DNA from: Escherichia coli 042
GTDB taxonomy: Bacteria > Pseudomonadota > Gammaproteobacteria > Enterobacterales > Enterobacteriaceae
Strand: one strand, 5' to 3'
Length of the DNA stretch: 64,000 bases
NCBI RefSeq assembly: GCF_000027125.1
Contig: NC_017626.1
A program made the position numbers and the translations under genes. This document shows positions 47,580 to 47,595 of the stretch, in pieces. Within the stretch, counting starts at the first letter, position 1, and each line of letters begins with the position of its first letter. The notes beneath the pieces were generated by a model. That model was not told where the DNA came from. It saw only the letters and a program-made list of their open reading frames with translations, and did no database searches.

Positions 47580-47595
47580 TGGCACAGCGATTGCT
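47580..47595 (+). promoter_or_regulatory. Sigma-54 (-24/-12) promoter upstream of lfgB
   Basis: TGGCAC-AGCGA-TTGCT matches the consensus TGGCAC-N5-TTGC with correct spacing; about 36 nt upstream of the lfgB ATG. Confidence 0.75.

Follow-up and report, generated by a model that had tools for sequence, protein, structure and literature searches.

A conserved sigma-54 promoter before the Flag-2 rod/hook operon of Escherichia coli 042 and a candidate LafK enhancer upstream of it

The element TGGCACagcgaTTGCT at positions 47580-47595 (+) of the Escherichia coli 042 DNA analysed here is very probably (probability about 0.88) the sigma-54 (RpoN) promoter of the Flag-2 operon lfgBCDEFGHIJKL, which LafK would activate from a palindrome centred at -85 with the help of an IHF-type bend, with transcription starting at about 47606 and LfgB translated from 47632. 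Judged by its conservation across species, the motif in front of this rod/hook operon is a real and deeply conserved sigma-54 promoter. The window, by which we mean the whole 64-kb stretch that was analysed, carries a complete Flag-2 (lateral-type) locus in the order lfhAB-lfiRQPNM, lafK-lfiEFGHIJ, a variable region (glycosyltransferase, lysine-N-methylase), lfgNMA, lfgBCDEFGHIJKL, lafA and lafB...lafU, and RefSeq annotates a 97%-identical copy with the genes in the same arrangement. The fadE gene of the window shows 100% identity to that of several E. coli genomes. The locus was reportedly first described by Ren et al. in 2005, in strain 042.

A sigma-54 promoter at lfgB has already been published: Liu et al. 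2015 (PMC4578781) described sigma-54 sites before both lfgB and lafB in the Flag-2 locus of E. coli strain PCN033. Theirs is a one-sentence in-silico note, silent on the methylase promoter, on the palindrome and on the IHF-like site, and it has no conservation analysis like that given below. What is added here, a third promoter, a phased enhancer candidate and a conserved IHF-like site, is modest.

Results

The preliminary description had placed TGGCAC-N5-TTGCT, with correct -24/-12 spacing, about 36 nt before lfgB, and this is what stands at 47580-47595 (+), where the letters are TGGCACAGCGATTGCT. The specified positions of TGGCAC-N5-TTGCW agree throughout (16/16), and the GG (47581-47582) and GC (47593-47594) are arranged as GG-N10-GC, one helical turn. 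The element lies in the 81-bp gap between lfgB and the divergent lfgA (46813-47550, -), which encodes a FlgA-type P-ring chaperone, and 36 nt separate its end from the ATG at 47632. On both strands of the window it is the single exact match to TGGCAC-N5-TTGCW. The chance expectation for such a match is 0.14, and at least one occurred in 11 of 100 shuffles of the window; the motif count by itself is weakly significant, and the comparative evidence is the strong part. The shuffles speak for a fortuitous consensus match, with lfgB transcribed from some other promoter and translated from an ATG at 47602, as do the frame of this ATG and its conservation within E. coli. Against that reading, a scan of 47350-47800, covering the lfgA-lfgB gap, detected no sigma-70-like promoter.

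A weight matrix built from orthologous sites only, with the window excluded, returned three sites at or above the threshold of 11 bits in the whole window, at 60994 (+), 45935 (-) and 47580 (+). All three precede Flag-2 operon starts, with 21-26 nt from predicted transcription start to ATG. The same scan of the window gave no sigma-54 site before lafK or the export-gate operons, which fits the Aeromonas scheme of such operons in class I and flgB_L in class II (PMC5013049). A sigma-70 scan of the lfiM-lafK gap found no promoter. One-mismatch matches at 37985 (inside lfiF) and 54616 (antisense) were rejected, as both have low matrix scores and neither has a palindrome. The rpoN gene itself is absent from the 64-kb window; E. 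coli carries rpoN.

For the comparative analysis, the 200 nt before lfgB were scanned in 80 loci from other species, one genome per species, spanning Enterobacterales, Vibrio, Enterovibrio, Shewanella, Ferrimonas, Aeromonas, Oceanimonas, Pseudomonas, Marinobacter and others. A -24/-12 element is present in 78/80 loci, 34-63 nt before the start codon, with no mismatch to the consensus in 12, one in 30, two in 23 and three in 13, whereas only 29 of 4546 control windows of 200 nt from the same loci (0.6%) hold a match with at most one mismatch. Retention at this level is hard to reconcile with a chance match. When 24 enterobacterial regions are aligned, the flanks and spacer vary around invariant CTGGCAY and TTGC blocks. 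The two loci in which no element was found are both betaproteobacterial (L066, Dactylopiibacterium; L076, Azoarcus); they also have no palindrome, which suggests that the flagellar system is controlled differently there. With its canonical GG/GC spacing, its conservation throughout Gammaproteobacteria and its orthology to a Vibrio parahaemolyticus flgB2 site that binds RpoN, the element supports the earlier reading of a sigma-54 promoter.

The promoter also fixes the lfgB start codon. Naive open reading frame calling extends lfgB by 10 codons, to the in-frame ATG at 47602, and the preliminary description had moved the start to the internal Met at 47632. The comparison bears this out: 19/19 aligned homologues begin with MGISF or MSISF at the equivalent of 47632, the start falls on the equivalent Met or Val in all homologues, and the 10-residue N-terminal extension occurs in none of those aligned. 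In RefSeq, an identical 111-aa protein (WP_000512950.1) likewise opens with that codon, and residues 1-111 of LfgB correspond to positions 1-116 of the NCBIfam FlgB model NF009328. The corrected coding sequence is 47632-47967 (+, 111 aa). A Shine-Dalgarno sequence AGGAG at 47616-47620 (+), conserved in the enterobacterial alignment, serves 47632 and not 47602; its spacing of 11 nt from the ATG is rather long. Counting 24 nt past the second G of GG and 12 nt past the C of GC, we predict the transcription start at 47606 (+), give or take 2 nt. This is 2 nt past the ATG at 47602-47604, which would therefore lie outside the mRNA, and the structure of the predicted 26-nt 5' leader is unremarkable (z = 0.04). 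The homologue starts, together with the conservation among loci and the control windows, effectively refute a fortuitous match combined with translation from 47602, which we consider extremely improbable.

Beside the lfgB promoter, the window holds two further matrix sites. The second promoter, TGGCACgccttTTGCC at 60994-61009 (+), precedes lafB (ATG 61041), with a predicted start at about 61020. The third, CGGCACgcttaTTGCA at 45920-45935 (-), has a predicted start at about 45909 and precedes the genes of variable region 1, which encode a FliB-like lysine-N-methylase (ATG 45885) and an 823-aa glycosyltransferase. The methylase-side promoter and its palindrome also occur in Citrobacter, Phytobacter and a Pseudocitrobacter-labelled genome. 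The third promoter implies that the flagellin-modification genes are co-regulated with the hook and filament genes. The Pseudocitrobacter-labelled locus (L002, QNRL01000007.1, labelled Pseudocitrobacter faecalis DSM 27453) has an LfgB 99% identical to that of E. coli and near-identical regulatory DNA; its Flag-2 segment is nearer to E. coli than those of Citrobacter and Phytobacter are, suggesting recent transfer or a labelling issue. On the lafB side, a REP-like sequence and a GC-rich hairpin at 60848-60910 follow lafA and separate the flagellin gene from the lafB promoter. The RefSeq E. coli copy has an annotated 70-aa 'hypothetical protein' that covers the lafB palindrome and promoter region and is probably spurious.

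Upstream of each of the three promoters stands a GGAA-N7-TTCC palindrome. The one at lfgB, GAGGAAAtaaaaCTTCCGC, spans 47512-47530 (core 47514-47528), is centred at -85 from the predicted start and overlaps lfgA codons 8-13; those at lafB (GGAAACGTCATTTCC, 60939-60953) and at the methylase gene (GGAAACGGATTTTCC in minus-strand reading, 45976-45990) are both centred at -74 in non-coding DNA. The core occurs five times in the window against 1.0 expected, a number reached in 0/100 shuffles, and 3/5 copies are those upstream of the promoters. The extended form GGAA-N7-TTCCGCCTG, expected 0.07 times per window, is exact at all three and faces the promoter each time. Two further palindromes lie elsewhere. 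A near-perfect copy of the extended palindrome with 1 mismatch (GGAACGTCGATTTCCGGCTG, 51657-51676, -) lies antisense inside lfgG with no adjoining sigma-54 element and is probably there by chance, even though the expectation for such matches is 0.07 per window. At 46003-46019, about 20 bp upstream of the methylase palindrome and overlapping the lfgN stop, a second palindrome with an N9 spacer (GGAATTGTCGTTATTCC) could be a second activator site.

Across loci, a perfect core is found upstream of lfgB in 72/80, compared with 0.8% of control windows, and the consensus reads A-n-G-C-GGAA-A/G-N5-(C/T)-TTCC. Its distance is fixed by clade: Vibrio and Enterovibrio have it at -75/-76, Enterobacterales together with Shewanella and Ferrimonas at -85 to -88, the Aeromonas group at -97/-98, and Pseudomonas with its relatives at -141 to -143. 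The distances differ by steps of about 11 bp, with four such steps to the Pseudomonas group. In Enterobacterales and Vibrio the palindrome sits within the first codons of the divergent flgA, and we considered whether it is conserved merely as code for the LfgA N-terminus. This was rejected, as its frame relative to flgA differs by clade (0, 1 or 2), it falls outside open frames in several Shewanella and Vibrio loci and is intergenic in Aeromonas, and the lafB and methylase copies are non-coding. Within Enterobacterales, part of the conservation could nevertheless be at the protein level (R-K-x-x-F).

Between palindrome and promoter, 60/78 loci carry an IHF-like site (WATCAANNNNTTR, at most 1 mismatch), compared with 3.1% of controls, and across loci these sites are centred at -38/-39 or -50/-51. 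The sites in the window differ in their fit to the consensus: the lfgB site (CATCAGTGACTTA, 47562-47574, +, centre -38) has 2 mismatches, the methylase site (AAACAAAGGATTG, 45953-45965, +) has 1, and the lafB site (AATCAATAGATTG, 60964-60976, -), which likewise lies between palindrome and promoter, has 0.

The preliminary description had also proposed control by LafK. The gene lafK (35299-36279, +) is intact and encodes a 326-aa sigma-54 activator that combines a Sigma54_activat domain (PF00158, E 2e-64) with an AAA lid and, at the C-terminus, an HTH_8. Its Walker A reads GETGAGKE, and residues 79-84 are GAFTGA. The protein has no N-terminal sensory domain and is the sole ATP-driven sigma-54 activator encoded in the cluster. 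Francke et al. 2011 class LafK with PspF and HrpR/S for this sensory-domain-free architecture (PMC3162934). The flgB_L promoter of Aeromonas hydrophila belongs to class II, which LafK up-regulates (PMC5013049); LafK of this species is reportedly no strict master regulator (PMC4481668). An intact activator in the cluster and the Aeromonas analogy both support LafK control, and we infer that the E. coli promoter is LafK-dependent as well. The literature searched yielded no expression data for E. coli Flag-2, and the Yersinia pseudotuberculosis RpoN ChIP-seq paper makes no mention of Flag-2.

Taken together, these features suggest the following sequence of events. Sigma-54 RNA polymerase would bind 47580-47595 as a closed complex, whose opening would need an ATP-driven activator, most likely LafK. 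The HTH_8 of LafK would bind GGAA-N7-TTCC, which at -85 falls within the opening codons of the divergent lfgA, and LafK would reach the polymerase through an IHF-type bend at about -40 to -50. Using ATP, LafK would then open the complex, giving transcription from about 47606 with a 26-nt leader that carries AGGAG, and translation of LfgB from 47632. The same three-part layout would drive lafB, and thereby also lafS, which encodes sigma-28, as well as the flagellin methylase and glycosyltransferase genes. With this shared layout, LafK would jointly switch on the hook/rod, filament-cap/sigma-28/motor and flagellin-modification genes.

The link between palindrome and LafK in this scheme probably holds and rests on co-occurrence. 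The promoter could be real and the palindrome not the LafK site, with another regulator binding there or LafK acting from solution or from another site. Activators that have no DNA-binding domain or are enhancer-independent do exist, namely FlgR, CtcC and FleT (PMC3162934), and V. parahaemolyticus LafK can replace the polar regulator FlaK, which suggests relaxed site requirements (PMC4481668). Moreover, an Aeromonas-like contig (L089) has a copy of the palindrome (GGAAGTTGTATTTCC, 748-762) between flhA and lafK without any sigma-54 promoter, a copy that may itself serve LafK autoregulation. However, LafK retains its HTH_8; each of the window's three sigma-54 promoters comes with the palindrome, which is scarcely found elsewhere; the distances of the palindrome are clade-specific and roughly helically phased; and the two betaproteobacterial loci that have no promoter have no palindrome either. 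A palindrome unconnected with LafK is on balance unlikely.

We see about even chances for the fuller proposal, that GCGGAA(A/G)-N5-(C/T)TTCCGC is a hitherto undescribed LafK site in Escherichia, Vibrio, Shewanella, Aeromonas and Pseudomonas, placed at whole-turn spacings (about -75, -86, -97 and -142), and that E. coli has a three-promoter LafK regulon which includes the methylase and glycosyltransferase genes. No description of a LafK binding site was found in the searchable literature; key J. Bacteriol. papers are outside that scope, and the novelty of the site is uncertain. Plesiomonas has lateral flagella and no lafK. A Plesiomonas locus was not among the matches of the second homologue search, and one candidate, P0211, was rejected as an Aeromonas-like cluster with lafK.

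In this strain, the second gene of the operon, lfgC (47970-48403), is frameshifted. Compared with two intact copies, it has a 2-bp insertion, (GC)3 for (GC)2, at about 48014-48020 (+), which leads to a stop at 48033-48035, and the remainder continues in another frame as an open reading frame at 48113-48403. An lfgC frameshift has been reported for strain 042 (PMC4578781), and the window carries exactly such a frameshift. The promoter probably drives a defective operon here, and with the operon broken its activity may be under no selection in this strain.

This raises the alternative that the site is an evolutionary relic, intact in sequence and unexpressed, in a Flag-2 system that is cryptic or decaying in E. 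coli. Besides the broken lfgC, it is favoured by the judgement of Ren et al. (cited by PMC4578781 and by PMC6993521) that Flag-2 is inactivated in strain 042, and by the deletion of the locus from most E. coli, Flag-2 being present in 1279/5426 complete genomes. On the other hand, LafK is intact, and among E. coli copies at most 10% divergent the substitutions in the promoter are confined to the N5 spacer and the C/T position of GGCAY, and those in the palindrome to its spacer. TGGCA, TTGC, GGAA and TTCC are thereby untouched, a pattern that points to purifying selection within the species. We consider a relic even less likely than a palindrome unconnected with LafK, and prefer a LafK-activated sigma-54 promoter.

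Other features of the window concern repeats and mobile elements. Within the rod/hook operon, a REP-type element at 51083-51159 (Rfam naRNA4, 78 bits) separates lfgF from lfgG; the gap is 178 nt, whereas the nearest E. coli copy in RefSeq has 27 nt there. The element could affect the stability or polarity of the operon mRNA. Five more naRNA4/REP copies, one at 24846-24923 and four at 27569-28591, are found outside the lfhA end of Flag-2, beside fadE. A group II intron at 15334-17153 (Rfam D1-D4 15334-15451, domain V/VI 17078-17153) encloses a 416-aa open reading frame at 15826-17076.

Discussion

The lfgB promoter confirms that E. coli Flag-2 shares its regulatory wiring with the lateral flagella of Vibrio and Aeromonas, with a sigma-54 activator on top and sigma-28 thereafter. 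The enhancer candidate, its helical phasing and the inclusion of flagellin-modification genes would together provide a sequence rule that predicts LafK targets in any genome. For strain 042 itself the practical consequence is small, given that lfgC is frameshifted.

A close relative is the flgB2 (VPA0264) promoter of V. parahaemolyticus, whose site ATGGCACGTATCTTGTTTG binds RpoN in EMSA (PMC9817140). The gene is orthologous, the position is equivalent and the layout of palindrome, IHF-like site and promoter is shared: we recovered the published site in locus L087 with GGAAGTTTGGTTTCC at -75 and a perfect IHF consensus. The two promoters differ in the -12 element, which is TTGT in V. parahaemolyticus and TTGC in E. 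coli, and in the palindrome, which is one helical turn closer in V. parahaemolyticus (-75 versus -85). A. hydrophila PflgB_L belongs to the class that is up-regulated by LafK in reporter data (PMC5013049), and an Aeromonas-like contig has TGGCATGACTCTTGTT with GGAAGCCGCCTTTCC at -97. However, A. hydrophila LafK has 468 aa and an N-terminal receiver domain, as does the LafK encoded in L089, whereas the 326-aa E. coli LafK has none, and the Aeromonas palindrome lies in non-coding DNA while the palindrome of E. coli lfgB is inside lfgA.

A further parallel is found within E. coli. The pspA promoter combines an upstream activating sequence (UAS), an IHF site and a -24/-12 element, and its activator PspF, which is held in check by PspA, has about 325 aa and consists of AAA+ and HTH only. 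The sensory-domain-free activator is as in Flag-2, and so is the three-part architecture proposed for it, whereas the UAS sequence and the regulon differ.
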